The translations under genes and the position numbers were made by a program. The notes under the pieces are model-generated. The model had not been told where the DNA came from. It was given only the letters and a program-made list of their open reading frames with translations, and made no database searches. From Escherichia coli (GTDB taxonomy: Bacteria; Pseudomonadota; Gammaproteobacteria; Enterobacterales; Enterobacteriaceae), in assembly GCF_013122565.1 (NCBI RefSeq), contig NZ_CP053258.1: a DNA stretch of 64,000 nucleotides; one strand, 5' to 3'. Below are positions 25,551 to 41,928 of the stretch, piece after piece. Every line of letters begins with the position of its first letter. The stretch's first letter is position 1.

Positions 25551-28016
<2,466 letters not shown>

Positions 28017-28039
28017 GTTCACTAAAAAACAGAACGGGG

Positions 28040-28070
28040 CCAAAGGGTCCCGTTTTTTTTCGCCATCATT
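28040..28070 (+). terminator. intrinsic terminator after glgP
   Basis: Hairpin aacggggccaaagggtcccgtt followed by a run of 8 T. Confidence 0.7.
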
Positions 28071-28132
28071 TCGGAAAAGTGTCCAGAAGGGGCAAGGGGA
28101 CTCGGGGAGTATAATTTCGCCATTCAGAAAGA

Positions 28133-29650
28133 ATGGAAAGAATAATGCAAAACAGAAAATGGATTTTGACCTCGCTGGTAATGACTTTTTTCGGCATCCC
28201 CATACTGACGCAATTTTTGGCAGCGGTTGTTGCTATGCTGGGGGGCGGGCTTGCCGCTATTCTTGAGGTTTGCAATTTACTCTTTACGCCAGCAATTTAT
28301 CTTCTACTCAACGTCTTTATGCTGACTCTGGGGGCGATAATAATATTTTTCTCTGGTCGCGTGTGGGCGGGCGATAGTGCACCAGAAAAAAAAGAAATAG
28401 CCGTCTGGCGACAATGTCTTTTTTTAGTACCTGCTTTATTCACCCTGGTTGGCTGGATAATCACGCTACATCTGGCAGATTATCAATTTCGCCAGATGGG
28501 AGACGGTTGGTTGGCAAACCTTATGCTTCCCTGGTTGGGCGTTTTTTTAGTCTCATTAGTGGGTGGTGAGTACTGGTGGATAGTCATTATACCCGTTGGC
28601 GCGCATATCAGTTTTTCGCTGGGGTACGGTTGGCCGACCAGACATCTTTTAACGGGCACGTCCGGGTTACGTTGCCGTAATTCCCTCTTGTTTATCCTTC
28701 TCATGCTTGGTTTTGTCGCCGGTTACCAGGCTTATTTATATAAACAGCTTAATCCCGGCGTCGGTGTGCGTGAAAATATTGATACCTGGGCCTGGCGACC
28801 CGATAAACTCAATAATCAACTGACACCACTGCGTGGTAAACCGCAAATTCAGTTCACGCAAAACTGGCCGCGACTCGATGGTGCTACGGCGGCGTACCCA
28901 ATTTATGCCTCTGCATTTTATGCTTTAAGCGTTATACCGGAAGATTTTCACGCCAGGAAATATCTGGAGAACTCTCGTACCCCCGATGCGTATAACAGGA
29001 TTGTTAAAGGTGATGCCGATATTATTTTTGTGGCGCAGCCCTCCGGTGGGCAGAAAAAACGCGCTGAGGAATCGGGCGTCACTTTGCTGTACACGCCTTT
29101 TGCCCGTGAAGCGTTTGTTTTCATCGTCAATGCAGATAACCCGGTTAATTCCCTGACCGAACAACAAGTGCGTGACATCTTCAGTGGCGCAATTACCAAC
29201 TGGCGCACGGTTGGCGGTAACGATCAGGAGATCCAGACCTGGCAACGCCCGGAAGACTCAGGTAGCCAGACGGTGATGCAGGCGCAGGTCATGAAAAATG
29301 TACGTATGATCTCGCCGCAGGAGACCGAAGTGGCTGAAATGATGGGAGGGATGATTAAAGTTGTTGCCGAATACCGTAATACAAACAACTCAATAGGCTA
29401 CACCTTCCGCTATTACGCAACGCAAATGAATACCGATAAGAATATCAAATTGTTAGCGATTAACGGTATTGCACCGACTGCGGAAAACATCCGTAACGGC
29501 AAATATCCCTATATCGTCGATGCCTTTATGGTAACGCGGGAAAATATGACGTCAGAAACGCAAAAACTGGTGGAATGGTTTTTAACGCCGCAGGGGCAAA
29601 GCCTGGTGGAAGATGTGGGTTATGTGCCGATGTATCCAACAATGAAATAA
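28133..29650 (+). CDS. membrane-embedded protein with C-terminal PstS-like periplasmic binding domain
   Basis: 505 aa. N-terminal ~200 aa contains about 5-6 hydrophobic helices; C-terminal ~290 aa resembles PstS-family binding proteins (GATAAYPIYASAFY, WQRPEDSGSQTVMQ, VGYVPMYP). Start could be 28145. Confidence 0.55.
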   Translation: MERIMQNRKWILTSLVMTFFGIPILTQFLAAVVAMLGGGLAAILEVCNLLFTPAIYLLLNVFMLTLGAIIIFFSGRVWAGDSAPEKKEIAVWRQCLFLVPALFTLVGWIITLHLADYQFRQMGDGWLANLMLPWLGVFLVSLVGGEYWWIVIIPVGAHISFSLGYGWPTRHLLTGTSGLRCRNSLLFILLMLGFVAGYQAYLYKQLNPGVGVRENIDTWAWRPDKLNNQLTPLRGKPQIQFTQNWPRLDGATAAYPIYASAFYALSVIPEDFHARKYLENSRTPDAYNRIVKGDADIIFVAQPSGGQKKRAEESGVTLLYTPFAREAFVFIVNADNPVNSLTEQQVRDIFSGAITNWRTVGGNDQEIQTWQRPEDSGSQTVMQAQVMKNVRMISPQETEVAEMMGGMIKVVAEYRNTNNSIGYTFRYYATQMNTDKNIKLLAINGIAPTAENIRNGKYPYIVDAFMVTRENMTSETQKLVEWFLTPQGQSLVEDVGYVPMYPTMK

Positions 29651-29675
29651 CCCTTGAGAGAAGGGAATCAGGGCG

Positions 29676-30677
29676 ATGAATAAATTCACAGAAGTTTTAC
29701 TGCTAGGTGCGGTATTACTGGCGGGATACGCCGACCGGGAAGCATACTATAACAGCGTCAGGGAAGAAGAGAGTCATGGACTGACTTCTCTGCGGGGACA
29801 GCCTGAATTACGTTACAGCGAAGATTGGTCAAGATGGCCCAGAGTGTACGGCGCTACCGCCTTATACCCCCTGTATGCTTCTGCATATTATGAATTAGTA
29901 CCGGAGCCGAAAGATGCGGATCAAACCTCACTGGCCTGGCAGGCGTATGGTCTGCAGCAAACCCGAACAGCTGAAGCCTACGATAATCTGATTAAAGGTA
30001 CTGCGACTGTTATTTTTGTCGCGCAACCTTCTGAAGGGCAGAAAAAACGTGCAGAAGAAGCGGGAGTTAAGCTGAAATATACCGCGTTTGCCCGCGAAGC
30101 CTTTGTCTTTATCGTTGATATCAAAAACCCGGTGAATTCACTCAGCGAACAGCAGGTCAAAGACATTTTTAGCGGTAAAGTGAGTCGCTGGAATAAAGTC
30201 GGTGGCAGCGACGAACGCATAAAAGTGTGGCAGCGCCCGGAAGATTCCGGTAGCCAGACGGTAATGCAAGAGTTAGTTATGCAAGGCACACCGATGTTAC
30301 CCGCTAAAAAATCAACCATGGTTGATCTTATGGGTGGGTTAATTACCGAAGTCGCCGACTATCAAAACACGCCATCTTCAATCGGTTATACCTTTTATTA
30401 TTATGTTACGCGTATGAATAGTAATATGCTCAAAATGCGCAAGCAGATCAAATTATTAGCCATCAACGGCGTCGCCCCCACTGAGGAAAATATTCGCAAC
30501 GGATCTTATCCCTATATTGTGGACGCCTATATGGTGACCCGTGAAAATCCAGCACCGGAAACGCAAAAGTTTGTCGACTGTTTTTTAAGCCCGCAGGGGC
30601 AACAGTTGGTGCAGGATGTGGGGTATGTGCCTTTATACCCGATTACGAACTCTCGTAAAAAGGATTTTGAAAAATGA
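29676..30677 (+). CDS. secreted PstS-like periplasmic binding-domain protein, paralog of the preceding gene
   Basis: 333 aa with N-terminal signal peptide; shares GATALYPLYASAYY, WQRPEDSGSQTVMQ and VGYVPLYP with the upstream gene. Confidence 0.55.
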   Translation: MNKFTEVLLLGAVLLAGYADREAYYNSVREEESHGLTSLRGQPELRYSEDWSRWPRVYGATALYPLYASAYYELVPEPKDADQTSLAWQAYGLQQTRTAEAYDNLIKGTATVIFVAQPSEGQKKRAEEAGVKLKYTAFAREAFVFIVDIKNPVNSLSEQQVKDIFSGKVSRWNKVGGSDERIKVWQRPEDSGSQTVMQELVMQGTPMLPAKKSTMVDLMGGLITEVADYQNTPSSIGYTFYYYVTRMNSNMLKMRKQIKLLAINGVAPTEENIRNGSYPYIVDAYMVTRENPAPETQKFVDCFLSPQGQQLVQDVGYVPLYPITNSRKKDFEK

Positions 30678-30952
30678 AAATATCAATAAGTAAACTTAGT
30701 GAATTTAAAAAGGTTTCTTTATTATTTCTGGCCTACTCATTATTTATTACTGCTGGGTGTGTCAGTCATCAGAATGTTACTGAAAGTATAAAAGAAAAAC
30801 AGAGTTATAATATTACAAGGATACAGGGGAAACCCGTATTACAAATTCCCGAAAAGGAAGCAACGTGGTTGACCGTGGCGAGGGCCACTACGTTATATCC
30901 ATTGTACTCTTCGGCATATCACATGGTTATAGTTGAACCCAGTGGACACTGA
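30674..30952 (+). pseudogene. truncated third PstS-like paralog with lipoprotein signal peptide
   Basis: 92 aa; lipobox ITAGC, then only the first ~45 aa of the binding domain (IQGKPVLQIPE...ATTLYPLYSSAYH) before a stop; ATGA overlap with the upstream gene; very AT-rich DNA follows. Confidence 0.5.
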
Positions 30953-31027
30953 TTCTGATAATATAGAAAAATCAATGATTAACGTCTCTGTTAATATGGG
31001 TATTACTCAGTAAAGGTAAGAAAAATT

Positions 31028-31219
31028 ATGCTGAAACGATTATTTTTTATTATTCTTATTTTATCCGCAACGGGATGTTCTATTGTTGACACCTCTCTGG
31101 AGAAAAAAGACTTACTTAATTTATCTGTATATGAAAATAATATTGTTGATAATTCAGTGTTAATAAGAGTTGTAGCCAGTCAAAAGGTAAAAGAGACCTG
31201 GTATATATGCAACGAATAA
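31028..31219 (+). CDS. small putative lipoprotein (hypothetical)
   Basis: 63 aa; signal peptide with lipobox LSATGC; in the AT-rich block. Confidence 0.35.
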   Translation: MLKRLFFIILILSATGCSIVDTSLEKKDLLNLSVYENNIVDNSVLIRVVASQKVKETWYICNE

Positions 31220-31671
31220 TAGAAAAAGCTTTAACGGTTTTGCTTATGATTTACGCCGGATCAGCAGCTGCCGAAGGTAAAGTGAACGATTTATGCCACA
31301 TAGGTGATCGTGTAGATAAACTTGAGATTACAAATTATCCTCATGATTACGAGTCGCTAGTTGCAGTTGATGAGAAGCGATTGAATGAAATTTATAAATA
31401 CAAGGTTGAAATTACCTATCTTGATAATAAAGAAAGTAAAAAAATTGTTGAACTATTACAAATGGATTATGCGGAACAAGAAGAAAATGTTACTGATGTG
31501 AGGTGGCGGGTGAATATCACTTCATATGGAAATAAAAAATGTGATATCTATTTTGATGGTTTTGGCTTATGTGGAAAAATTAATGGTGAGAATGTCTGTT
31601 TCAGGCATAACGAAATGATACGGTGGATTGAGTCTCATATTTCTGTATTTCTACATAGTGTTAACGAATGA
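31207..31671 (+). CDS. small secreted hypothetical protein
   Basis: 154 aa; signal peptide ending AGSAAAEG; AT-rich codon usage. Confidence 0.4.
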   Translation: MQRIIEKALTVLLMIYAGSAAAEGKVNDLCHIGDRVDKLEITNYPHDYESLVAVDEKRLNEIYKYKVEITYLDNKESKKIVELLQMDYAEQEENVTDVRWRVNITSYGNKKCDIYFDGFGLCGKINGENVCFRHNEMIRWIESHISVFLHSVNE

Positions 31672-31690
31672 ATGTGAAAAAGGAATTTAT

Positions 31691-32143
31691 ATGCAATTTT
31701 TATTTAAAAATAATAAATTATTTTTTATAAGGATAAGGTTAGTTTCGGTTATTTTATTTTTATTTATGAGTACTTCCTTGTATGCTAAAAATCCATGTGA
31801 AGGACTTAAAGGTGATTTACCTGCGGCGCAGTTAATTCCACTTAAGAAAAATATTGCCAGGCAGTTGAATTCTGAAATGGAACAGGTAGTAGAAGTTAAT
31901 AAAGTTGAAATATTATCTTTCGATACCTTGCAGGAATGGTCAATTGTTGGTGTCGCTACCGGAGTATCAGATGATGCATTGTTAATTTATAAAGGGAATA
32001 TCACTAAAACTGATTATGTGGCATTATTTGGAGGCGCTGCAAGTATTAACGATGACATGATCCAATGGATAAACCAGAAAGCGCCGGGAATTCCAGATAA
32101 GTTGGCACAATGTTTTGCGTGGGGAGCTGTATATCGTGATTGA
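31691..32143 (+). CDS. small secreted hypothetical protein
   Basis: 150 aa from MQFLFKNNK with aagga Shine-Dalgarno 8 nt upstream; signal peptide ending LYAKNP. Confidence 0.4.
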   Translation: MQFLFKNNKLFFIRIRLVSVILFLFMSTSLYAKNPCEGLKGDLPAAQLIPLKKNIARQLNSEMEQVVEVNKVEILSFDTLQEWSIVGVATGVSDDALLIYKGNITKTDYVALFGGAASINDDMIQWINQKAPGIPDKLAQCFAWGAVYRD

Positions 32144-32161
32144 TAATAAAAGGACAACCAA

Positions 32162-32869
32162 ATGGAATTAGTTGATACGTTATTTGCAAGCCTCGCCGGT
32201 ACTGATCCTTTCACAGGCGTGGATATTACGATTGCCAAATGCGAATCGGCATATTGGGCCGAGGGCATTGTTCAGCTGCTCATTAACCAGGCCCTGGATG
32301 AAGGGGAAAAGTTCGTCGGTGCTGCCGGTCTTGAGGGATTGCTTCGATATGATGTCACATTAAATATTGGCTTAACGTCCAGCAATGTATGGCCGGGGTT
32401 TTCCCTCGATACCGCCACCATTGGCCGTCTTTGTGCCTGTGGTGCTGACTTTGGATTTGACCCTTATATCAGTGATGTACCAGATGTTCAATGTGACCTG
32501 AACACGACAAATGACTTCACCGTTCAATTTACGGCGATGCTCAACCCGGAGCGGGCGATCATAGCAAAGCGCCCGCTTAAAAAATGTGACTCCTGGATTG
32601 AGGATGTCTATATCTTTCAGGTCTTTAAAGAAGCCTGGAAGTTTCATAACGATAACAGCTTACGAGGATTTCGCGATAAGCAGGCTGAACTGAAACTCTA
32701 CGCGCGTCATTACTCAGTGGAAAATTGTATAGAGGAAAGCTGCCGTGACTGTAATAGTTGTATTCGGCCCAGCTTTTCCCTTTCTCGTAGTGCCATTATT
32801 CGCCTGAACGCGGCGAATGCTCGTTTTGTTTATCAACCGTTTACACGCGACCAGCGGGCGAGGGGGTAA
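32162..32869 (+). CDS. hypothetical protein, Cys-rich C-terminal part
   Basis: 235-aa ORF with no recognisable family; stop lies 2 nt before the next start. Confidence 0.4.
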   Translation: MELVDTLFASLAGTDPFTGVDITIAKCESAYWAEGIVQLLINQALDEGEKFVGAAGLEGLLRYDVTLNIGLTSSNVWPGFSLDTATIGRLCACGADFGFDPYISDVPDVQCDLNTTNDFTVQFTAMLNPERAIIAKRPLKKCDSWIEDVYIFQVFKEAWKFHNDNSLRGFRDKQAELKLYARHYSVENCIEESCRDCNSCIRPSFSLSRSAIIRLNAANARFVYQPFTRDQRARG

Positions 32870-32871
32870 TT

Positions 32872-33660
32872 ATGCAACCCAGTCCCGCCATGCAGAATAT
32901 TATTGCCCATGCCTGGGCGATATTTCATTTTTATCCTGCACCGCAACAGTTCAATATTTGCGTTCCTTGCTGTGTCAGCGAAGAGGTCGCGCAGGCGTTA
33001 CGGCAAACACCGTTACGTCAATTAACCGTTGAAATGATATATGAATGGAACAGTAGCGCGAGGCCTTTTGAACAACAGAATGATGAAATCCGTTACCTCC
33101 TTCCGAGACTGCTGGAATTACTGGCTCACGGTCATTGTCCTGCCATAAATGAAGAGTTATGCCTGAAACGTATTGGCGCTATTTCCCTGGACACCTGGCA
33201 GCCGGAGGAGCGTGATGTACTTACCGATTTTTCCCGCCAGTATATTCGCGATTTATTACTTACCCCGACATTGACCGATCTTGAATCTGCCCTCGTGATG
33301 TTTCATTTTGCCGGACTATCTATAACGGCTTTATTAGATGAGGCGCTGAACACGCCTGGCTATTGGGCTATCGCTTCGCTGGCCTATTTTTTGTATATCA
33401 AGCGTCCAAACGGCGAATTACGTAACGCGTTTATCTCACGCAAGCCGGATGGTGAAGTGATAACGCAGCAAATTAACGCCTGGATTGCGCAATCATGTCA
33501 CGCGCTGGCAGAACGCGCCGCGGCGGCGATTGAATGCTCGCCATCCCTTCCCGGCGGTGGACACACGGAGTACAGTGTTGACCTGAGCTACCTGATTGAC
33601 GAAAGCCTTTGTGCGCTTGTTGATTATCAATTGCTCTGGACGATGGACCGTAATGAATAA
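32872..33660 (+). CDS. hypothetical protein, paralog A of a tandem pair
   Basis: 262 aa beginning MQPSPAMQ; shares N-terminal Cys motif, NDEIRYLLPRL and other blocks with the next gene. Confidence 0.45.
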   Translation: MQPSPAMQNIIAHAWAIFHFYPAPQQFNICVPCCVSEEVAQALRQTPLRQLTVEMIYEWNSSARPFEQQNDEIRYLLPRLLELLAHGHCPAINEELCLKRIGAISLDTWQPEERDVLTDFSRQYIRDLLLTPTLTDLESALVMFHFAGLSITALLDEALNTPGYWAIASLAYFLYIKRPNGELRNAFISRKPDGEVITQQINAWIAQSCHALAERAAAAIECSPSLPGGGHTEYSVDLSYLIDESLCALVDYQLLWTMDRNE

Positions 33661-33671
33661 GGAGATTCACA

Positions 33672-34448
33672 ATGCAACCCAGCCCCGCCATGCAGGCATT
33701 AATTGAGCAGATTTATCATATTTTTCGTCGTTATCCGGTGCCGTCGAGATTTCATGTTTGTTGTCCTTACTGCTTTAGCGAAGAACAACAACAAGCCTTA
33801 AAAGGGGTTTCACTGCGTGCCATACCTTTCCCTTTATTACATGCCTGGGGAACAAGTATTGGCCCTAACCCACAAAATGATAATGAGATTCGCTATTTAT
33901 TACCCAGATTGTTTGACTTTATTGCCCAAAGGCAATTTCCAGGCATTTATGAAGGCTGCTGTTTACAGAGAATAGCAGAAGCAGATAACCAGAACTGGCG
34001 AGCGGATGAACTACAAATAATTAGCGATTTCGCCTATTTATATATGCAGGATTGGGTGTCGGTTAAGGAAGTTGTGGAGCTGGAAATAATATTAGAAATG
34101 TTTTATCGCGGTGGTATAAAGATTGAACCCTTACTTGACGCTATTATGTCCATTTCCGGTTACTGGCCGACGGCGTCAATGGCATGTTTGCTCTGGCGTA
34201 ACAGTAAAGAATACGTCGAAAATAGCGAGTTTGAGCAGAGTGATGATGATAAAACCATTACCACCCAAATCAATACCTGGGCTAGAAATAATCATCCTTT
34301 GCTGAAAGAACGCGCGCGGCAAGCGATTGAGAACCCGCTAAAACAGCCCGAACAGGGCACACGATATCAGGTCTGGGAAGACGACTGGATGATTGATGAG
34401 TGTTTGTGCGCAATGTATGACGCATCATCCGAATCATCAGGACAATAA
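33672..34448 (+). CDS. hypothetical protein, paralog B of a tandem pair
   Basis: 258 aa beginning MQPSPAMQ; paralogous to 32872..33660. Confidence 0.45.
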   Translation: MQPSPAMQALIEQIYHIFRRYPVPSRFHVCCPYCFSEEQQQALKGVSLRAIPFPLLHAWGTSIGPNPQNDNEIRYLLPRLFDFIAQRQFPGIYEGCCLQRIAEADNQNWRADELQIISDFAYLYMQDWVSVKEVVELEIILEMFYRGGIKIEPLLDAIMSISGYWPTASMACLLWRNSKEYVENSEFEQSDDDKTITTQINTWARNNHPLLKERARQAIENPLKQPEQGTRYQVWEDDWMIDECLCAMYDASSESSGQ

Positions 34449-34450
34449 AG

Positions 34451-34633
34451 ATGAATAAAATCAAACTTTATATTCCTCCGCTATTTCTCGGCTTTGTTAT
34501 TGTGCCGCTGTTGGTGTGGCCGACGGTGGTTGCGCTGGCGGCTTTTGGTATCACGCTGAGTTTTCTGGGGGAGTTACTGTTCTTAATCCCGATCATAGTC
34601 CGACGTATGTCACTTCTGGAAGCACAACTTTGA
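34451..34633 (+). CDS. small hydrophobic membrane protein, possibly the N-terminal part of a stop-interrupted gene
   Basis: 60 aa with two predicted transmembrane helices; same reading frame as the following ORF, separated by a single TGA. Confidence 0.3.
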   Translation: MNKIKLYIPPLFLGFVIVPLLVWPTVVALAAFGITLSFLGELLFLIPIIVRRMSLLEAQL

Positions 34634-34666
34634 TTATCGGCTGAATATACGCTTGTTTTCTGTGCA

Positions 34667-35050
34667 ATGGTGGGCGTTGGTTGGCAATTCTCTCGCAGAA
34701 CGTCACCTGAATTAAAAAACAGACTGCATTTTTGGCTGGTCTTTACACCGGTTTATTTCTGGTTGCTTCTGTGGAATATCATTTTCTATATCGGGCCAGC
34801 GAAAAATGCATTGCTGGAAAATATCCGCAATTTCTTTTTAACAATTGTCTGGTTACCGCTGAATTTTTCGCCACTTTGGTCCCAACCGTGGACTGACTTT
34901 GTCGGTCCAATAAGCGCACAGCTTGGTTTTGCGTTGGGATATTATTGCCAGTGGCGTAGCAAAAATAGAAGCCAGGGGCAGAAGTGGGGTGAGTGGGGAA
35001 CGTGTCTTAGTTTTGTTACGTTGGGTATGATGGCATGGGTTTTGCGGTAA
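34667..35050 (+). CDS. hydrophobic membrane protein, possibly the C-terminal part of a stop-interrupted gene
   Basis: 127 aa with predicted transmembrane helices; in frame with 34451..34633. Confidence 0.3.
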   Translation: MVGVGWQFSRRTSPELKNRLHFWLVFTPVYFWLLLWNIIFYIGPAKNALLENIRNFFLTIVWLPLNFSPLWSQPWTDFVGPISAQLGFALGYYCQWRSKNRSQGQKWGEWGTCLSFVTLGMMAWVLR

Positions 35051-35100
35051 TTTCCTGAATCAAAAAGCAGGCCAGATTGTTGACGAAGTGCGCTTTGTTC

Positions 35101-35199
35101 ATGCCGGATGCGGCGTGAACGCCTTATTCGGCCTACAAAATCATGCAAATTCAATATATTGCATAAACCACGTAGGCTTGATAAGCGTAGCGCATCAGG
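35101..35199. repeat. BIME: two inverted REP units
   Basis: gccggatgcggcgtgaacgccttattcggcctac and gtaggcttgataagcgtagcgcatcagg in inverted orientation. Confidence 0.7.
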
Positions 35200-35263
35200 A
35201 AATTTTGTGTTTGTCATCAGTCTCAGGCCAGATTGAAATCTGACCTGATCACCTTACGTTAAT

Positions 35264-36769
35264 TTACGACGCCAGCGACAACTTCTGCTGCGTATACTCC
35301 ACCAGCCACTGACTCACACGAGATTGTTGATCCGCATTCAGCCACATGCCTTGTTTTGTGCGACGCCACAGGGCATCGTCGGCGCGGCGGACCCATTCGT
35401 GATCCACCAGGTATTTCAGCTCCGCTTCGTAGAACTCATGACCGAAATCCTCCCCGAGGTCGCTTATCGCCCCTGCATTGCCGAGCAGCAGTTCGCTGTT
35501 GCTGCCGTAAGTGCGCGCGTAGTGACGTGCCAGCGATTCAGTCAGGAATGGATAGCGACGGCGCAGACGAGCGGCATAATCGTCGCGGTCACCTTCAATG
35601 GCACCACCCGGCAGCACGCTCTCTTTCGTCCACGCCGGGCCAATACCCTGATAATACGGCGTCAGTTTTTCCAGCGCATGTTCCGCCAGTTTGCGGTAGG
35701 TGGTCAGCTTACCGCCGAATACCGACAGCAGCGGTGCTTTGCCGTTTTCATCATGGATATCAAGGGTGTAATCACGGGTAATAGCCTGCGGCGAGTCGGA
35801 CTCATCATCACACAGCGGACGCACACCGGAGTAGGTCCAGACGATATCATCACGGCTTAGCTGCTTTTTAAAGTGCGTGTTATACACTTTCAGCAGGTAA
35901 TTGATTTCACTCTCTTCAATCTTCACTGCTTTCGGATCACCTTTGTATTCCACATCGGTGGTGCCGATGATTGAAAACTCGTCCATCCACGGGATCACGA
36001 ACACAATACGTTTATCTTCGTTTTGCAGAATGTAGGCTTGCTTCTGGGTATGCACGCGTGGTACCACAATATGGCTGCCTTTGATCAGGCGAATGCCATA
36101 AGGTGAGGGCAGATGCATCCCGTCGTCGAAGAACTGTTTCACCCACGGGCCGGTGGCGTTAACCAGGCCGCGCGCTTGCCAGCTATATTTTTTGCCGGTA
36201 TCGATATCTTCCGCTTCCACAATCCACAGGCCGTTTTCGCGGCGAGCAGAGGTGGCGCGAGTCCGAGTAAGCACTTCGCCGCCTTTACGCACCACCATCT
36301 GGGCGTTGGCGAGTACCAGACGGGCGTCGTCTACCCAACAGTCAGAATATTCGAATCCGCGCTTAATTTCCGGTTTTAACACTGAGTTTGCGCCAAAACG
36401 CAAACCGGTTGATCCCGGCAGGCTGGTGCGTTTACCCAGATGATCGTACATAAACAGACCAATGCGAATCATCCACGCCGGGCGCAGATGCGGACGATGC
36501 GGCAGGCGAAAACGCATCGGGAAGGCGATATGAGGGGCCATTTTCAGTAGCACTTCACGTTCAGCCAGCGCCTCGCTGACCAGGCGGAATTCATAGTGCT
36601 CAAGGTAGCGCAGGCCACCGTGAATGAGTTTTGAACTGGCGGAAGAGGTCGCACAAGCGAGATCCTGCGCCTCCAGCATCAGCACGGATAAACCGCGTCC
36701 AGCGGCGTCTGCCGCGATACCAGCACCATTGATGCCGCCCCCTATCACAATCAGATCTTTGGTTTCCAT
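35264..36769 (-). CDS. glpD: aerobic glycerol-3-phosphate dehydrogenase
   Basis: 501 aa from METKDLIVIGGGINGAG (FAD-binding Rossmann motif). Confidence 0.93.
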   Translation of the reverse strand: METKDLIVIGGGINGAGIAADAAGRGLSVLMLEAQDLACATSSASSKLIHGGLRYLEHYEFRLVSEALAEREVLLKMAPHIAFPMRFRLPHRPHLRPAWMIRIGLFMYDHLGKRTSLPGSTGLRFGANSVLKPEIKRGFEYSDCWVDDARLVLANAQMVVRKGGEVLTRTRATSARRENGLWIVEAEDIDTGKKYSWQARGLVNATGPWVKQFFDDGMHLPSPYGIRLIKGSHIVVPRVHTQKQAYILQNEDKRIVFVIPWMDEFSIIGTTDVEYKGDPKAVKIEESEINYLLKVYNTHFKKQLSRDDIVWTYSGVRPLCDDESDSPQAITRDYTLDIHDENGKAPLLSVFGGKLTTYRKLAEHALEKLTPYYQGIGPAWTKESVLPGGAIEGDRDDYAARLRRRYPFLTESLARHYARTYGSNSELLLGNAGAISDLGEDFGHEFYEAELKYLVDHEWVRRADDALWRRTKQGMWLNADQQSRVSQWLVEYTQQKLSLAS

Positions 36770-36880
36770 GCTGCCCTCATTCACTTTCGTTAAAGCTCAT
36801 AAATGTTCGTTATCGAACATATTAGCAAAGAATCGCGCTTTAGGTAACATTGAAAAAACATTTTAGAGTGATATGTATAA

Positions 36881-38176: not shown

Positions 38177-38935
38177 ATGAAACAAACACAACGTCACAAC
38201 GGTATTATCGAACTGGTTAAACAGCAGGGTTATGTCAGTACCGAGGAACTGGTGGAGCACTTCTCCGTCAGCCCGCAGACTATTCGCCGCGACCTCAATG
38301 AGCTGGCAGAGCAAAACCTGATCCTGCGCCATCATGGCGGTGCGGCGCTGCCTTCCAGTTCGGTTAACACGCCGTGGCACGATCGTAAAGCCACCCAGAC
38401 CGAAGAAAAAGAGCGCATCGCCCGCAAAGTGGCGGAGCAAATCCCCAATGGCTCGACGCTGTTTATCGATATCGGCACCACGCCGGAAGCGGTGGCGCAC
38501 GCGCTGCTCAATCACAGCAATTTGCGCATTGTGACTAACAATCTCAACGTTGCTAACACGCTGATGGTAAAAGAAGATTTTCGCATCATTCTCGCCGGTG
38601 GCGAATTACGTAGCCGCGATGGTGGGATCATAGGCGAAGCGACGCTCGATTTTATCTCTCAGTTCCGCCTCGACTTTGGCATTCTGGGGATCAGCGGCAT
38701 CGATAGCGACGGCTCGCTGCTGGAATTCGATTACCACGAAGTTCGCACCAAACGCGCCATTATTGAGAACTCGCGCCACGTTATGCTGGTGGTCGATCAC
38801 TCGAAATTTGGCCGTAACGCGATGGTCAATATGGGTAGCATCAGCATGGTCGATGCCGTCTACACCGACGCCCCGCCGCCTGCGGGCGTGATGCAGGTGC
38901 TGACGGACCACCATATTCAACTGGAGCTGTGCTGA
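38177..38935 (+). CDS. glpR: glycerol-3-phosphate regulon repressor (DeoR family)
   Basis: 252 aa from MKQTQRHNGIIELVKQQGYV (helix-turn-helix); the longer ORF start 38126 was rejected. Confidence 0.9.
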   Translation: MKQTQRHNGIIELVKQQGYVSTEELVEHFSVSPQTIRRDLNELAEQNLILRHHGGAALPSSSVNTPWHDRKATQTEEKERIARKVAEQIPNGSTLFIDIGTTPEAVAHALLNHSNLRIVTNNLNVANTLMVKEDFRIILAGGELRSRDGGIIGEATLDFISQFRLDFGILGISGIDSDGSLLEFDYHEVRTKRAIIENSRHVMLVVDHSKFGRNAMVNMGSISMVDAVYTDAPPPAGVMQVLTDHHIQLELC

Positions 38936-40515
38936 TCCTGCACGGCTTCCCACGTCAGACCAAAACGCGCCAGGTATTTGCGTAGCCGATCTGCGTCGTT
39001 GACGCTGGCTTTGCCCTGGCGCGAAACATCAAAAAGCTGGCGACCGGCAGCAGAAAGCGACTTTGCCTGGCGGCAGATAGCGATAACGTGTTCCAGTTGC
39101 AGTCGGTCAAAGAGATCGATGTTTTCTGCCTCCGCGCCCAGCAACGCCGTAAGCGCGGAAGGACGGGTCTCCTGCCAGTTATAGCGCAGACGGTTTATCT
39201 CATCTTCAACCACTTCCAGAGTGATGCGTCCGCTAGTGGCAAAGGTAGCCATCCGCGTGACGCTGGCAGAAAGCTCGCGAAAGTTACCGCGCCATGTTGC
39301 CTGGGGAGATGTCGCAAAGGCCAGCCAGGCACGCCGTGCTTCGGTGTTAAAACGTACGCTGTCGCCGGTAAGCGCGGCGTGTCGCTCCACTTCATAATCC
39401 AGGTTCGGTTCGATATCTTCCTGGCGCTGGCGTAGCCCCGGCAGGGTGAAGGTCCAGAGATTGATCCGCGCGTACAAGTCTTCGCGAAATTTGCCTTCGG
39501 CAACCAGCTGGCGCAAATCGCGCACCGTTCCGGCGATAAGCTGAAAATCACTGCTCACCTGGCGATCGCTGCCAAACGGATAAAAGGTTTTTTCTTCAAT
39601 GGCTTTAAGCAGCATTGCCTGTTCGTCTGCGCCCAGTTCGCCAATCTCATCAAGAAACAACATTCCGCCGTTGGCGCTGCGTAATAATCCTTCACGAGAT
39701 TCCCGCGCCCCGGTAAACGCGCCTTTCACATGACCAAACAGCGTCGACATGGCGGTATCGCCGCGCAGGGTTGCGCAGTTCACTTCCACAAACGCGCCGC
39801 TAAACTGATGCCGCGCCTGTTTTAATTCAAATATACGTCGCGCCAGAAATGACTTACCTGCACCGGTCGGGCCATTAAGCAGAATTGGCGCGCGGGATTT
39901 GATCGCTACTTTTTCAATCTGCTCAATCATGCGGTTGAAGTGGGGGTTACGCGTGGCAATGCCGGACTTAAGAAAATCGAGCGTTTGCTGCCGTTCCTCG
40001 GCAAAGCGGCTGGCGATGGCGTTATAACGGCTTAAATCGAGATCGATAATCGTCACTTCACCTGCGCCGCACGGCTGTTCTTTTTTGCGCGGAGGGGAAG
40101 ATTGTATCAGCCGGGCGGGCAGGTAACGCGCTTCCGCCAGCAGAAACCAGCAAATCTGTGCGACGTGGGTGCCAGTGGTGATGTGAATTAAATAGTCTTC
40201 TTTATCAGGTTGAAACGCGTAGCCACGGGCGAAATCATGCAGGCAGGCGTAAACCTCTTCGAAATCCCACGGGTTATGCAGTTCAATCTCAACGCTCACC
40301 ACTTCAGTTTCTGGCGAAACGCTGGCGATATCGCATTTAAGCGTTTCAAACAGCGAGCGCGAGCGGGCGTCGTGCAACAATTCCAGTCGATCGATGACTA
40401 ACGATTCTTGCTGGCATAAACAGAGTGTTGGACGCCATTTCGACCAGCGCTGACTGCCGCGTCCGGCATAATCCAGTACGGTGCCGACAAAGCCAAAAGC
40501 CACTGTTTTACGCAT
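38917..40515 (-). CDS. rtcR: sigma-54-dependent transcriptional activator of rtcBA
   Basis: 532 aa; AAA+ sigma-54 activator core ([14 protein letters not shown]) and C-terminal helix-turn-helix; divergent from rtcBA. Confidence 0.9.
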
Positions 40516-40649
40516 CTTAGATATCCTTATAAAAGACGATATTTCATTATCGGTAAATTGGCTTTGCGGGAAATCTCCGTTTACGGACTGGAAGATTTTA
40601 TCTATTTAAAAACAATGAATTAAAAAATTAAGCAGCTTATTTAATTTTC

Positions 40650-40665
40650 TGGCACGACGGTTGCA
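40650..40665 (+). promoter_or_regulatory. sigma-54 (-24/-12) promoter of rtcBA
   Basis: TGGCACgacggTTGCA is an exact match to TGGCAC-N5-TTGCA, about 40 nt upstream of rtcB. Confidence 0.8.
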
Positions 40666-40701
40666 ATTACCAGGACATACCAACGAAAAGAGAAAAACAA
40701 A

Positions 40702-41928
40702 ATGAATTACGAATTACTGACCACTGAAAATGCCCCGGTAAAAATGTGGACCAAAGGCGTGCCGGTAGAAGCCGATGCGCGTCAGCAACTTATTAATACG
40801 GCGAAGATGCCGTTTATTTTCAAACATATTGCGGTAATGCCTGATGTACACCTGGGTAAAGGTTCCACCATTGGTAGCGTGATCCCGACCAAAGGGGCGA
40901 TTATTCCGGCGGCGGTGGGCGTGGATATTGGCTGTGGAATGAACGCGCTACGTACCGCGTTAACGGCGGCAGACCTGCCTGAAAACCTGGCGGAGCTGCG
41001 TCAGGCGATTGAAACGGTCGTGCCGCACGGGCGTACTACCGGACGTTGTAAACGTGATAAAGGCGCATGGGAAAACCCGCCTGTTAACGTCGATGCGAAA
41101 TGGGCTGAGCTGGAGGCCGGTTATCAGTGGTTAACGCAAAAATATCCGCGTTTCCTTAACACTAACAACTATAAACACCTGGGAACGCTGGGAACGGGTA
41201 ACCACTTTATTGAAATCTGCCTTGATGAGTCGGAGCAGGTGTGGATTATGCTGCACTCCGGTTCACGCGGAATTGGTAACGCCATCGGGACTTACTTTAT
41301 CGATCTGGCGCAAAAAGAGATGCAGGACCAACTTGAGACGTTGCCGTCGCGTGATCTGGCGTACTTTATGGAAGGTACGGAATACTTTGATGATTACCTG
41401 AAAGCCGTGGCCTGGGCGCAGCTTTTTGCCAGCCTTAACCGCGATGCGATGATGGAAAACGTGGTAACGGCGTTGCAGAGCATTACGCAGAAAACGGTCA
41501 GACAGCCACAAACGCTGGCGATGGAAGAGATCAACTGTCACCACAACTATGTGCAAAAAGAACAGCACTTTGGTGAAGAGATCTACGTGACGCGTAAAGG
41601 CGCGGTGTCTGCGCGTGCTGGTCAATATGGAATTATTCCCGGTTCGATGGGAGCGAAAAGCTTTATCGTCCGTGGGCTGGGAAATGAAGAGTCGTTCTGT
41701 TCGTGCAGCCACGGTGCCGGGCGGGTTATGAGCCGTACTAAAGCGAAAAAACTGTTCAGCGTGGAAGATCAAATTCGTGCTACCGCGCATGTGGAATGCC
41801 GTAAAGATGCCGAAGTGATCGACGAAATCCCGATGGCGTATAAAGATATTGATGCGGTGATGGCGGCACAAAGCGATCTGGTGGAAGTTATCTACACCCT
41901 GCGTCAGGTGGTGTGCGTAAAAGGATAA
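40702..41928 (+). CDS. rtcB: RNA-splicing ligase RtcB
   Basis: 408 aa; RtcB family. Confidence 0.93.
   Translation: MNYELLTTENAPVKMWTKGVPVEADARQQLINTAKMPFIFKHIAVMPDVHLGKGSTIGSVIPTKGAIIPAAVGVDIGCGMNALRTALTAADLPENLAELRQAIETVVPHGRTTGRCKRDKGAWENPPVNVDAKWAELEAGYQWLTQKYPRFLNTNNYKHLGTLGTGNHFIEICLDESEQVWIMLHSGSRGIGNAIGTYFIDLAQKEMQDQLETLPSRDLAYFMEGTEYFDDYLKAVAWAQLFASLNRDAMMENVVTALQSITQKTVRQPQTLAMEEINCHHNYVQKEQHFGEEIYVTRKGAVSARAGQYGIIPGSMGAKSFIVRGLGNEESFCSCSHGAGRVMSRTKAKKLFSVEDQIRATAHVECRKDAEVIDEIPMAYKDIDAVMAAQSDLVEVIYTLRQVVCVKG

Follow-up and report, generated by a model that had tools for sequence, protein, structure and literature searches.

The glgP-glpD interval of Escherichia coli is an ancient polymorphic locus that may store immunity-type genes without their toxins

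The window analysed here comprises 64,000 nucleotides of Escherichia coli contig NZ_CP053258.1, and its glg genes are 99.2% identical to those of many E. coli strains; judging by sequence, it is ordinary E. coli. Between glgP and glpD, positions 28133-35050 are filled by 11 plus-strand ORFs of at least 60 aa (Table 1), in line with a preliminary description that had counted at least 11. Three of these, 30674-30952 and the two halves of gene D (34451-34633 and 34667-35050), are not intact genes. The terminator hairpin behind glgP folds with -17.8 kcal/mol (z = -2.95, RNA fold), and at the other border a strongly palindromic segment (-44.8 kcal/mol, z = -4.9) matches two REP-derived Rfam families, ES036 (39.4 bits, exceeding the gathering score) and naRNA4 (E = 0.0096). 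Whereas the terminator and the BIME had both been recognized correctly, the statement that glpD begins after the BIME was wrong: because glpD lies on the minus strand, it is convergent with the interval ORFs and turns its 3' end towards them. The heterogeneous composition noted before is also borne out. GC content amounts to 0.45-0.51 over most of the interval, compared to 0.50-0.58 in the flanking glgP and glpD, and drops to 0.28-0.39 across ~30.6-32.1 kb, with a minimum of 0.28 at 31.4-31.8 kb. For A, A2, s154, B, C1 and C2, pairwise comparison with other E. coli alleles gives dN/dS ratios of 0.07-0.20; on this sequence evidence, they are real genes under purifying selection. With dS values of 0.2-1.8 vs 0.05-0.09 in glgP, the interval alleles greatly exceed the flanks in age.

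Table 1. Features of the glgP-glpD interval and its borders (positions in the 64-kb window)
Feature	Position	Strand	Description
glgP	25569-28016	+	left flank of the interval
glgP intrinsic terminator	28031-28060	+	11-bp stem, 4-nt loop, U8 run
Gene A	28133-29650	+	N-terminal membrane domain (~230 aa) fused to a PstS-like periplasmic binding domain
Gene A2	29676-30677	+	stand-alone PstS-like paralog, 333 aa
A3	30674-30952	+	truncated third PstS-like paralog; lipoprotein-like signal and first ~60 mature residues only
s63	31028-31219	+	small candidate ORF, lipoprotein-like; hydrophobic N-terminus followed by Cys
s154	31207-31671	+	secreted protein, homolog of Rhs-element gene dsORF-h1; orphan here
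s171	31691-32143	+	signal-peptide protein, 150 aa from ATG at 31691
Gene B	32162-32869	+	cytoplasmic protein, 235 aa
Gene C1	32872-33660	+	all-alpha solenoid protein, 262 aa; allele class rare in E. coli
Gene C2	33672-34448	+	paralog of C1 (38% identity); ortholog of the single C gene in most E. coli
Gene D	34451-35050	+	200-codon membrane protein, here split by an in-frame TGA
REP/BIME palindromic element	35097-35199	.	separates D from the glpD 3' end
glpD	35264-36784	-	right flank of the interval

Gene A, which probably starts at the ATG at 28145, contains six hydrophobic 19-mers in its N-terminal domain (hydropathy) and matches Pfam PBP_like_2 with residues 250-485 (E = 2.4e-29). A2 shares 60% identity with the C-terminal half of A. 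Both proteins resemble the PstS family in having a complete PBP_like_2 domain and an R-x3-S-G-S/T motif and in matching solved PstS structures at E ~1e-18 (1e-18 for A), with the binding domain of A retaining the motifs GAT... and R-x3-SGS. However, A and A2 score merely 120 and 130 bits against TIGR02136, far under the curated cutoff of 206.6, and no pstCAB genes adjoin them. The hydrophobic-segment domain fused to A sets it apart from PstS as well, and in an alignment read by eye the region equivalent to that of PstS Asp56 appears different. The dN/dS ratio is 0.13-0.17 for A and 0.07-0.09 for A2 (dS 0.8-0.9). A3 is 34% identical to the A2 N-terminus (E = 1e-13); its DNA has no match among 5,426 E. 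coli genomes, and its protein forms a singleton cluster.

For gene B, AlphaFold2 modelled residues 1-100 with a pLDDT of about 64-94, while the second half, at low confidence, repeats their order of secondary-structure elements. This suggests for B a tandem of ferredoxin-like, DUF4279-like domains, of which only the first is confidently modelled. The fold predicted for this domain, beta-beta-alpha-alpha-beta-beta-alpha-beta, is that of DUF4279/FdL-Imm5, and Foldseek matched it to DUF4279 proteins, among them one of Salmonella salamae (42% identity, E = 1.8e-8, target-normalised TM-score 0.82). DUF4279 corresponds to the FdL-Imm5 immunity family (PMC9424270), and it has been predicted to provide immunity to an Rhs-Ntox33 effector of Salmonella (PMC13304343). 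In contrast to these proteins, B has an apparent tandem two-domain form and no adjacent toxin gene, and the Pfam DUF4279 HMM finds no significant match in B or its close relatives. Against the YbbD model B reaches only 24 bits (cutoff 373), and it shows no similarity to K-12 ybbD DNA.

C1 was modelled with high scores (AlphaFold2; pLDDT 86.5, pTM 0.87) and has no Pfam match; most of the named proteins in its 90% cluster come from E. albertii. C2 differs from the common E. coli alleles by a dS of 1.2-1.8 at a dN/dS of 0.15-0.20, and C gave no match to known immunity families. Homologs of C are also found at sites remote from A, B and D, singly or in tandem. Their neighbours there are heterogeneous and include pentapeptide-repeat proteins, Band_7 proteins and an operon for rtc RNA repair. 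One could imagine that, instead of binding toxins, the C family and perhaps B join the nearby rtc system in the response to damaged RNA. One family member does lie inside an operon of the order rtcR, Band_7, a 155-aa protein, C, RtcB and RtcA (L030), a Band_7 gene precedes another C homolog (L010), and in the window only ~3.9 kb lie between the right border of the interval and rtcR-rtcB. However, only one of ~12 inspected contexts is rtc-embedded, the remaining ones being unrelated, and glpD, glpE, glpG and glpR stand between the interval and rtcR in E. coli, rendering this explanation very unlikely.

In gene D, the TGA at 34631-34633 occupies a position where the O157 copy encodes Trp. Five other compared E. 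coli loci carry D as an intact annotated CDS of about 200-204 aa. D has thus been knocked out in the window strain while its neighbours stay under purifying selection.

The AT-rich insert of 1.2-1.5 kb encodes two signal-peptide proteins, s154 and s171, beside s63, for which family, DNA and PHROG searches returned no protein family or DNA match. Over its full length, s154 is 46% and 45% identical to genes located 11-12 nt downstream of Rhs core/C-terminal-fragment genes (E = 3e-46). One of them, dsORF-h1, follows the RhsH core gene in E. coli (46% full-length identity, 154 vs 149 aa) and shares with s154 an N-terminal signal-like sequence and a conserved Cys pattern. In all six E. coli loci inspected, dsORF-h1 comes directly after a gene for an Rhs core or C-terminal fragment, often with VgrG adjoining, whereas no Rhs gene is found within 64 kb of s154. 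By its placement, dsORF-h1 occupies the RhsI immunity position; in Dickeya, experiments have shown that genes directly after Rhs genes encode RhsI immunity proteins (PMC3150448). The s154 copy in strain 2020CK-00188 is 88% identical (dN/dS 0.14). GenBank lists the exact 150-aa s171 protein as QJU26573, the only member of its cluster. By tblastn, s171 matches a Salmonella ORF (L024 7001-7399; 35% identity over 141 aa, E = 2e-23) that lies just upstream of orphan Rhs-CT fragments (L024 7436 onward). This homolog appears degraded and its cognate toxin is missing, which speaks against an immunity function. Variable downstream parts of Rhs elements are low in GC; the GC content of the insert fits this property and favours such a function. 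As far as homology can tell, s154 and s171 are secreted proteins related to Rhs-toxin immunity genes, while A, B, C1/C2 and D are uncharacterised membrane and cytoplasmic proteins.

To place the locus in a wider context, we compared it with 5,426 complete E. coli genomes. At least 80% of the interval is covered in only one of them, 2020CK-00188 (91% identity); as a whole, the interval does not belong to the conserved, annotated core genome of most E. coli. Individual genes differ widely in frequency: a D-like match covering at least 80% of the query occurs in 3,843 genomes (71%), the body of A in 3,347 (62%), full-length B in 2,325 (43%), A2 in 882 (16%, at ~86% identity) and C1 in one (0.02%). 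Other architectures comprise A+A2+D (O157, lacking B and C), A+B+C+D, a fimbrial operon plus B+C+D, and the yzgL remnant; some strains are without A, and the breakpoints fall at gene boundaries. In K-12 the interval measures 615 bp, of which the first 350 bp align to 28017-28366, the 5' end of gene A, and the last 278 bp to 34986-35263, the D tail plus REP. YzgL therefore begins with the N-terminal ~73 residues of A and then continues out of frame, and yzgL is a microhomology deletion joining the A 5' end to the D 3' end. K-12 is the derived deletion form. The earlier view of the window as the intact or expanded form of a variable locus reduced to a short remnant in K-12 is hereby substantiated. 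The term accessory island fits the variable content but not the origin: because A and D are present in the majority of genomes, the same site is used in other genera, no tRNA gene was found at the locus and a protein family search matched no interval ORF to an integrase or transposase family, the interval is not an inserted island. It is not a mobile element but a polymorphic locus of ancient origin that undergoes recombination. Its ancestral frame is A, B, C and D in this order, and the strains have lost, duplicated or replaced entire genes, with the changes starting and ending at gene boundaries. The window strain represents the most expanded form seen, with A2, the truncated A3, C1 and the AT-rich insert as extra content. 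That the interval is functionless DNA decaying towards the K-12 state is hardly credible: the premature stop in D, the truncation of A3 and the loss of nearly everything in K-12 and many other strains point that way, but the low dN/dS ratios persist across deep divergence, and thousands of genomes as well as other genera hold intact copies.

At the same site, Pseudocitrobacter, Superficieibacter and E. whittamii likewise show the gene order A-B-C(-D). Across Escherichia, Pseudocitrobacter and Superficieibacter, protein identity is ~40-70%, and the genes are spaced by gaps of merely 2-14 nt. Together with purifying selection on all four genes (dN/dS listed for A, A2, s154, B, C1 and C2) and the PstS-like motifs retained in A, this conservation would suit a single co-functional envelope system carrying the AT-rich insert as unrelated, hitch-hiking cargo; for example, A might capture or sense an oxyanion and pass a signal on to B and C in the cytoplasm, D being the membrane partner. 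We consider such a system rather unlikely, given that its parts are singly dispensable, with O157 retaining only A, A2 and D and others B, C and D without A. Moreover, no D match was seen in Pseudocitrobacter, the C homologs occur away from A, B and D, D is a nonsense pseudogene here, yet A, B and C are intact, and family searches found no transporter permease, ATPase or signalling domain. The Superficieibacter locus also encodes a 935-aa protein in which an SF1 helicase is joined to a DUF2726 nuclease-like domain; its helicase region resembles those of the anti-phage proteins ProA, Hhe and PLuB. This protein and the high variability and deeply divergent alleles raise the question of whether the locus is an anti-phage defence hotspot, with B, C and D forming an undescribed defence system. 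However, the window proteins yielded no credible PADLOC defence model match and no informative PHROG match, and B, C and D lack a nuclease, NTPase, protease or other enzymatic domain, which makes a defence hotspot quite unlikely. The sole PADLOC match, JetD, was rejected as not credible (E = 0.0097).

Our favoured, though tentative, reading is that the locus is a toxin-less collection of individually acting, protective genes of the immunity type, directed against contact-dependent polymorphic toxins. In this scenario, competitors would deliver Rhs/T6SS-type toxins, and each locus protein would neutralise, by binding, a single toxin domain that enters the cell, with s154 and s171 acting in the periplasm and B, possibly also C, in the cytoplasm. 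The reading draws on the homology of s154 to dsORF-h1 in its post-Rhs position, the s171 homolog inside a Salmonella array of orphan Rhs-CT fragments, and the fold match of the first B domain to DUF4279 proteins. It is further suggested by the independent occurrence of the genes across strains and genera, the disruption of D while its neighbours remain selected, and the age of the interval alleles relative to the flanks. Ankyrin-repeat proteins are a common immunity type, and the ankyrin-repeat gene present in the sister island points in the same direction. The 64-kb window contains neither a toxin gene nor an Rhs fragment, so that a cognate pair cannot be demonstrated. Several observations weigh against the immunity reading: B and C are without a significant Pfam DUF4279 match and a known immunity family, respectively, the neighbours of C homologs are heterogeneous, and the kept A-B-C-D order and tight spacing across genera resemble one joint-function operon. 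To our knowledge, PstS-like binding proteins are not an immunity type, which likewise counts against it.

Among known systems, we compared the locus with orphan immunity arrays, namely orphan rhsI/cdiI modules and T6SS poly-immunity clusters. It differs from them in being unattached to any rhs, cdi or vgrG locus, in having no toxin C-terminal fragments between its genes, in its conserved A...D frame with PstS-like and membrane proteins of no known immunity link, and in its fixed housekeeping site common to several genera. In common with such arrays, it consists of small, individually dispensable, co-oriented genes without a toxin gene, among them two with homologs in Rhs immunity slots (s154 and s171) and one with a DUF4279-like domain (B), and it shows deeply divergent alleles, an AT-rich insert and strongly strain-variable content.

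The interval between glgP and glpD (28133-35050) carries eleven plus-strand ORFs of at least 60 aa, in agreement with the preliminary description, which had recorded an island with at least 11 ORFs at this site. The intrinsic terminator reported after glgP was recovered as an 11-bp hairpin followed by a U8 run at 28031-28060. At the other end, a REP/BIME element (35097-35199) does lie beside glpD, folding strongly and matching the REP-derived Rfam families ES036 and naRNA4; the statement that glpD begins after this element had to be reversed, as the gene is on the minus strand and points its 3' end toward the island. A second strong hairpin (35205-35262, minus strand; -19.2 kcal/mol, z = -3.7) is located directly 3' of the glpD stop codon and is probably the glpD terminator or a further REP unit, though it has no clear U tract. 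The heterogeneous composition and very AT-rich block noted earlier were also evident: the GC content is mostly 0.45-0.51 and drops to 0.28-0.39 at ~30.6-32.1 kb, compared to 0.50-0.58 in the flanking glgP and glpD, and this AT-rich block is compositionally foreign. The hallmarks of a mobile genomic island (a recombinase, an attachment site, flanking repeats) were absent, as no tRNA gene is present at the island, no island ORF matched an integrase, transposase or other recombinase family, and flanking direct repeats were short, at chance level and not meaningful.

Genes of the glgP-glpD interval and its flanks, with window coordinates and the number of complete E. coli genomes (of 5,426) carrying each gene (gene body for A; copy at the glgP-glpD locus for s154)
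Gene	Position	Strand	Genomes	Description
glgP	25569-28016	+		left flank of the island
A	28133-29650	+	3,347 (62%)	membrane domain plus PstS-like domain; six hydrophobic 19-residue segments within the first ~200 residues
A2	29676-30677	+	882 (16%)	stand-alone binding-domain paralog, 60% identical to that of A
A3	30674-30952	+	0 (0%)	third paralog, signal sequence and first ~60 residues only
s63	31028-31219	+	0 (0%)	AT-rich block; lipoprotein-like candidate ORF
s154	31207-31671	+	1 (0.02%)	AT-rich block; small ORF
s171	start 31691	+	0 (0%)	AT-rich block; 150 aa from its real start
B	32162-32869	+	2,325 (43%)	DUF4279-like first domain; no predicted transmembrane segments
C1	32872-33660	+	1 (0.02%)	one marginal predicted transmembrane segment, otherwise none
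C2	33672-34448	+		no predicted transmembrane segments; 38% identical to C1; resembles the usual E. coli C
D	34451-35050	+	3,843 (71%)	200-codon membrane protein gene; in-frame TGA at 34631-34633
glpD	35264-36784	-		right flank of the island

Following its hydrophobic segments, A contains a complete PBP_like_2/PstS-like domain (Pfam E = 2.4e-29). With 120 and 130 bits, the TIGR02136 scores of A and A2 stay under the curated 206.6 cutoff for PstS, and linkage to pstCAB was not seen, there being no ABC permease or ATPase ORF within 28133-35050. B, C1 and C2 are spaced by 2-11 nt. At the end of the island, D is broken by the TGA into a 60-aa and a 127-aa ORF, and the O157 ortholog has a Trp codon (TGG) at this position. 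Homology between D and the membrane domain of A is no more than suggested: an hhalign comparison paired 146 colinear columns and showed a common motif, P-x-x-A-x-x-x-F-x-L-G-Y, yet its E-value was 0.044 and its probability 1.2%.

Comparative alignment revealed that the glgP-glpD interval is strongly variable and that the form of this strain is rare and expanded, as had been anticipated. Among the 5,426 complete E. coli genomes, strain 2020CK-00188 was the only one covering at least 80% of the island, and it harbors a longer architecture that includes an ankyrin-repeat gene (L001 8110-9162). O157 strains have the architecture A-A2-D and other E. coli have A-B-C-D; in some, a chaperone-usher fimbrial operon replaces A and is followed by B-C-D (L004 1-5829), with a 57-bp remnant of the A 3' end retained just upstream of B (L004 5917-5973). 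The breakpoints between architectures coincide with gene boundaries. The short yzgL remnant described for K-12 proved to be a 615-bp interval in which the 5' end of A is joined to the tail of D. This interval (L027 2020-2634) aligns to window positions 28017-28366 (350 bp, reaching A codon ~78) and 34986-35263, retains the last ~65 bp of D and has its junction at a short G-rich microhomology (GTGGG), such that yzgL consists of A codons 1 to ~73 followed by an out-of-frame tail from the D 3' end. K-12 yzgL is thereby explained as a chimera created by deletion, and both of its parent genes persist in most E. coli. Beyond E. coli, a scan of species-representative genomes with a closer C alignment returned four loci, and the order A-B-C(-D) was found at the glgP-glpD site also in E. 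whittamii, Pseudocitrobacter and Superficieibacter. The gene order shared across genera and the chimeric K-12 interval therefore argue that the frame is ancestral and the K-12 state derived by deletion; we are highly confident that the site is an ancestral polymorphic one, with a rare expanded variant in this strain and a deletion remnant in K-12.

The Superficieibacter locus (L020 3825-7263) contains an extra B paralog and then a gene for a 935-aa protein that joins an SF1 helicase (AAA_11/AAA_12) to a DUF2726 nuclease-like domain; its helicase region resembles those of ProA, Hhe and PLuB, which are anti-phage proteins. Conflict genes appear to accumulate at this site outside E. coli as well. 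PADLOC and PHROGs scans of the island proteins yielded no credible match for any of them, and a reading of the locus as a defence system is among the less likely ones. The main rival to the protective function proposed for the locus is that A, B, C and D form one co-functional envelope system. Such a system would be in line with the conserved gene order and the tight gene spacing; however, the free loss of its individual members and the nonsense mutation in D of this strain speak against it. We regard a single system as rather unlikely.

We next turn to the alleles themselves. The island DNA is only 86-95% identical to that of E. coli genomes, compared to 99.2% identity with many E. coli strains over the adjacent 8 kb glgB-X-C-A-P. 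An origin in a non-coli Escherichia species, suggested at first by island identities of 90-95%, was rejected on the strength of these glg genes; the window comes from an ordinary E. coli in which the island alleles alone are unusual. Six island proteins have exact GenBank matches (QJU26571-QJU26576), all from one E. coli genome. Pairwise dN/dS ratios against other E. coli alleles were 0.07-0.20 for A, A2, s154, B, C1 and C2, with D lying above its neighbours (0.23-0.44), and dS reached 0.2-0.9 across the island and 1.2-1.8 for C2, compared to 0.05-0.09 for the adjacent glgP. Given the low dN/dS and the high dS, these island proteins are real and constrained, and their alleles are much older than the surrounding chromosome; that the locus is junk is one of the less likely readings. 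The DNA of C2 and D (33672-35013) is 73-75% identical to the common alleles at three comparison loci (L003, L004, L005), with flanks of ~99%. For C2/D, two very deep allele classes coexist in one species. In the C1 cluster, most members with a species name belong to E. albertii and a few to E. fergusonii or other Escherichia. Together with the old alleles, this membership fits either a long-lived polymorphism or import between species.

With regard to function, two of the small ORFs in the AT-rich insert, s154 and s171, point to Rhs elements. A sensitive DNA search matched s154 to 'RHS element protein dsORF-h1', with 46% identity end to end (E = 3e-46). In six of six E. coli loci inspected, only 11-12 nt separate the start of the s154 homolog from the preceding gene, which encodes an Rhs core or C-terminal fragment; such homologs often adjoin VgrG and precede a further Rhs gene. 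Small ORFs in the same post-rhs position have been identified by experiment as RhsI immunity genes in Dickeya, the only such case (PMC3150448). Because tblastn found no Rhs core or C-terminal fragment anywhere within the 64-kb window, we refer to s154 as an orphan. Upstream of dsORF-h1, the RhsH-type core protein (L011 2498-6763) bears a HEFAH motif in its tip after DPxGL, and this C-terminal tip gives a weak Peptidase_M91 match (E = 0.0077). Combined with the signal peptides on dsORF-h1 and s154, these sequence features suggest that the RhsH-type toxin acts in the periplasm. A concrete candidate pair is s154 with the metallopeptidase-like RhsH-type C-terminal toxin. For s171, 35% identity was detected to an ORF that lies in a Salmonella array (L024) and seems to be degraded; an ISAs1/H-repeat remnant precedes this ORF, and four orphan Rhs C-terminal fragments come after it. 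This array, with its orphan toxin/immunity genes and ISAs1 remnant, is located on the 302-kb 'plasmid' pCFSAN022626 of Salmonella Abortusequi, which also carries yegQ. This gene is chromosomal in E. coli K-12, and pCFSAN022626 may be a chromosomal segment misassigned as plasmid.

The AlphaFold2 model of B is confident for residues 1-100 (pLDDT ~64-94), and its second half repeats the same secondary-structure pattern in a low-confidence model. Foldseek searches with the first domain retrieved proteins named DUF4279 (E 1.8e-8 to 1e-4), among them a Salmonella salamae protein with 42% identity (E = 1.8e-8). The model thus supports the DUF4279 ferredoxin-like fold for this first domain only. DUF4279 corresponds to the FdL-Imm5 immunity family (PMC9424270), and a DUF4279 protein has been predicted to confer immunity to a Salmonella Rhs-Ntox33 effector (PMC13304343). 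An hmmscan of B and eight relatives returned no match to Pfam PF14106 at E <= 0.1, and the B-family alignment likewise had no Pfam hit; two relatives carry a precomputed PF14106 flag. When the B and C1 sequences were compared with those of solved structures, nothing above noise emerged. Some B orthologs are named 'YbbD family protein' in RefSeq, and K-12 ybbD directly follows the orphan Rhs fragment ylbH. B scored 24.1 bits against the YbbD family NF007301, over residues 7-52 only and far from the curated cutoff of 373, and tblastn detected no similarity between B and the K-12 ybbD pseudogene region. The putative link of B to ybbD consists only of the 24-bit partial HMM match and the RefSeq naming.

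Poly-immunity clusters hold several immunity homologs and no toxin gene; in the island, s154 conforms to this description, and s171 and B are suggestive of it. We tentatively propose, with slightly less than even confidence, that the locus would be a toxin-free store of immunity-type genes, each giving protection on its own. The case for immunity is strongest for s154, which quite probably belongs in this category; s171 and B make a moderate case, C makes a weak one, and A, A2 and D make none. If the immunity reading is true, such strains would be protected from Rhs/T6SS toxins that they do not themselves encode, which would matter for how strains compete in the gut. Hotspots of variable gene content and orphan immunity genes are both familiar from bacterial chromosomes; in the literature on yzgL, on ybbD with Rhs and on a glgP/glpD hotspot, we found no published description of this locus. 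For the several common E. coli genes in the hotspot, annotation goes no further than 'hypothetical protein' or, in the case of A and A2, 'PstS family substrate-binding protein'. The most useful leads are the explanation of yzgL, the candidate immunity/toxin pair and the C family.

The C protein was modeled by AlphaFold2 as an alpha-solenoid (pLDDT 86.5). A full HMMER search assigned 2,251 representative clusters from many phyla to the C family at E <= 1e-3; no Pfam family was found among these clusters, and a Pfam scan of C1 was empty. Being large and unnamed, the family merits a gene-neighbourhood study of its own. Elsewhere, C homologs occur alone, as a tandem pair or beside ankyrin- or pentapeptide-repeat genes, and the contexts of distant homologs are heterogeneous. 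Once, a distant member was located in an rtcR-regulated operon, with the order rtcR / Band_7 - 155 aa - C - RtcB - RtcA (L030 5361-10167). Band_7 also precedes another C homolog (L010 6028-7992), and in the window only ~3.9 kb separate the right end of the island from rtcR-rtcB (38917-41345). The C family may be linked to the RNA-damage response, although this reading is again one of the less likely ones. In two unrelated contexts (L014-L016 and L028), pentapeptide-repeat proteins flank C homologs, and in L028 an ankyrin-repeat gene overlaps the start of the C homolog.
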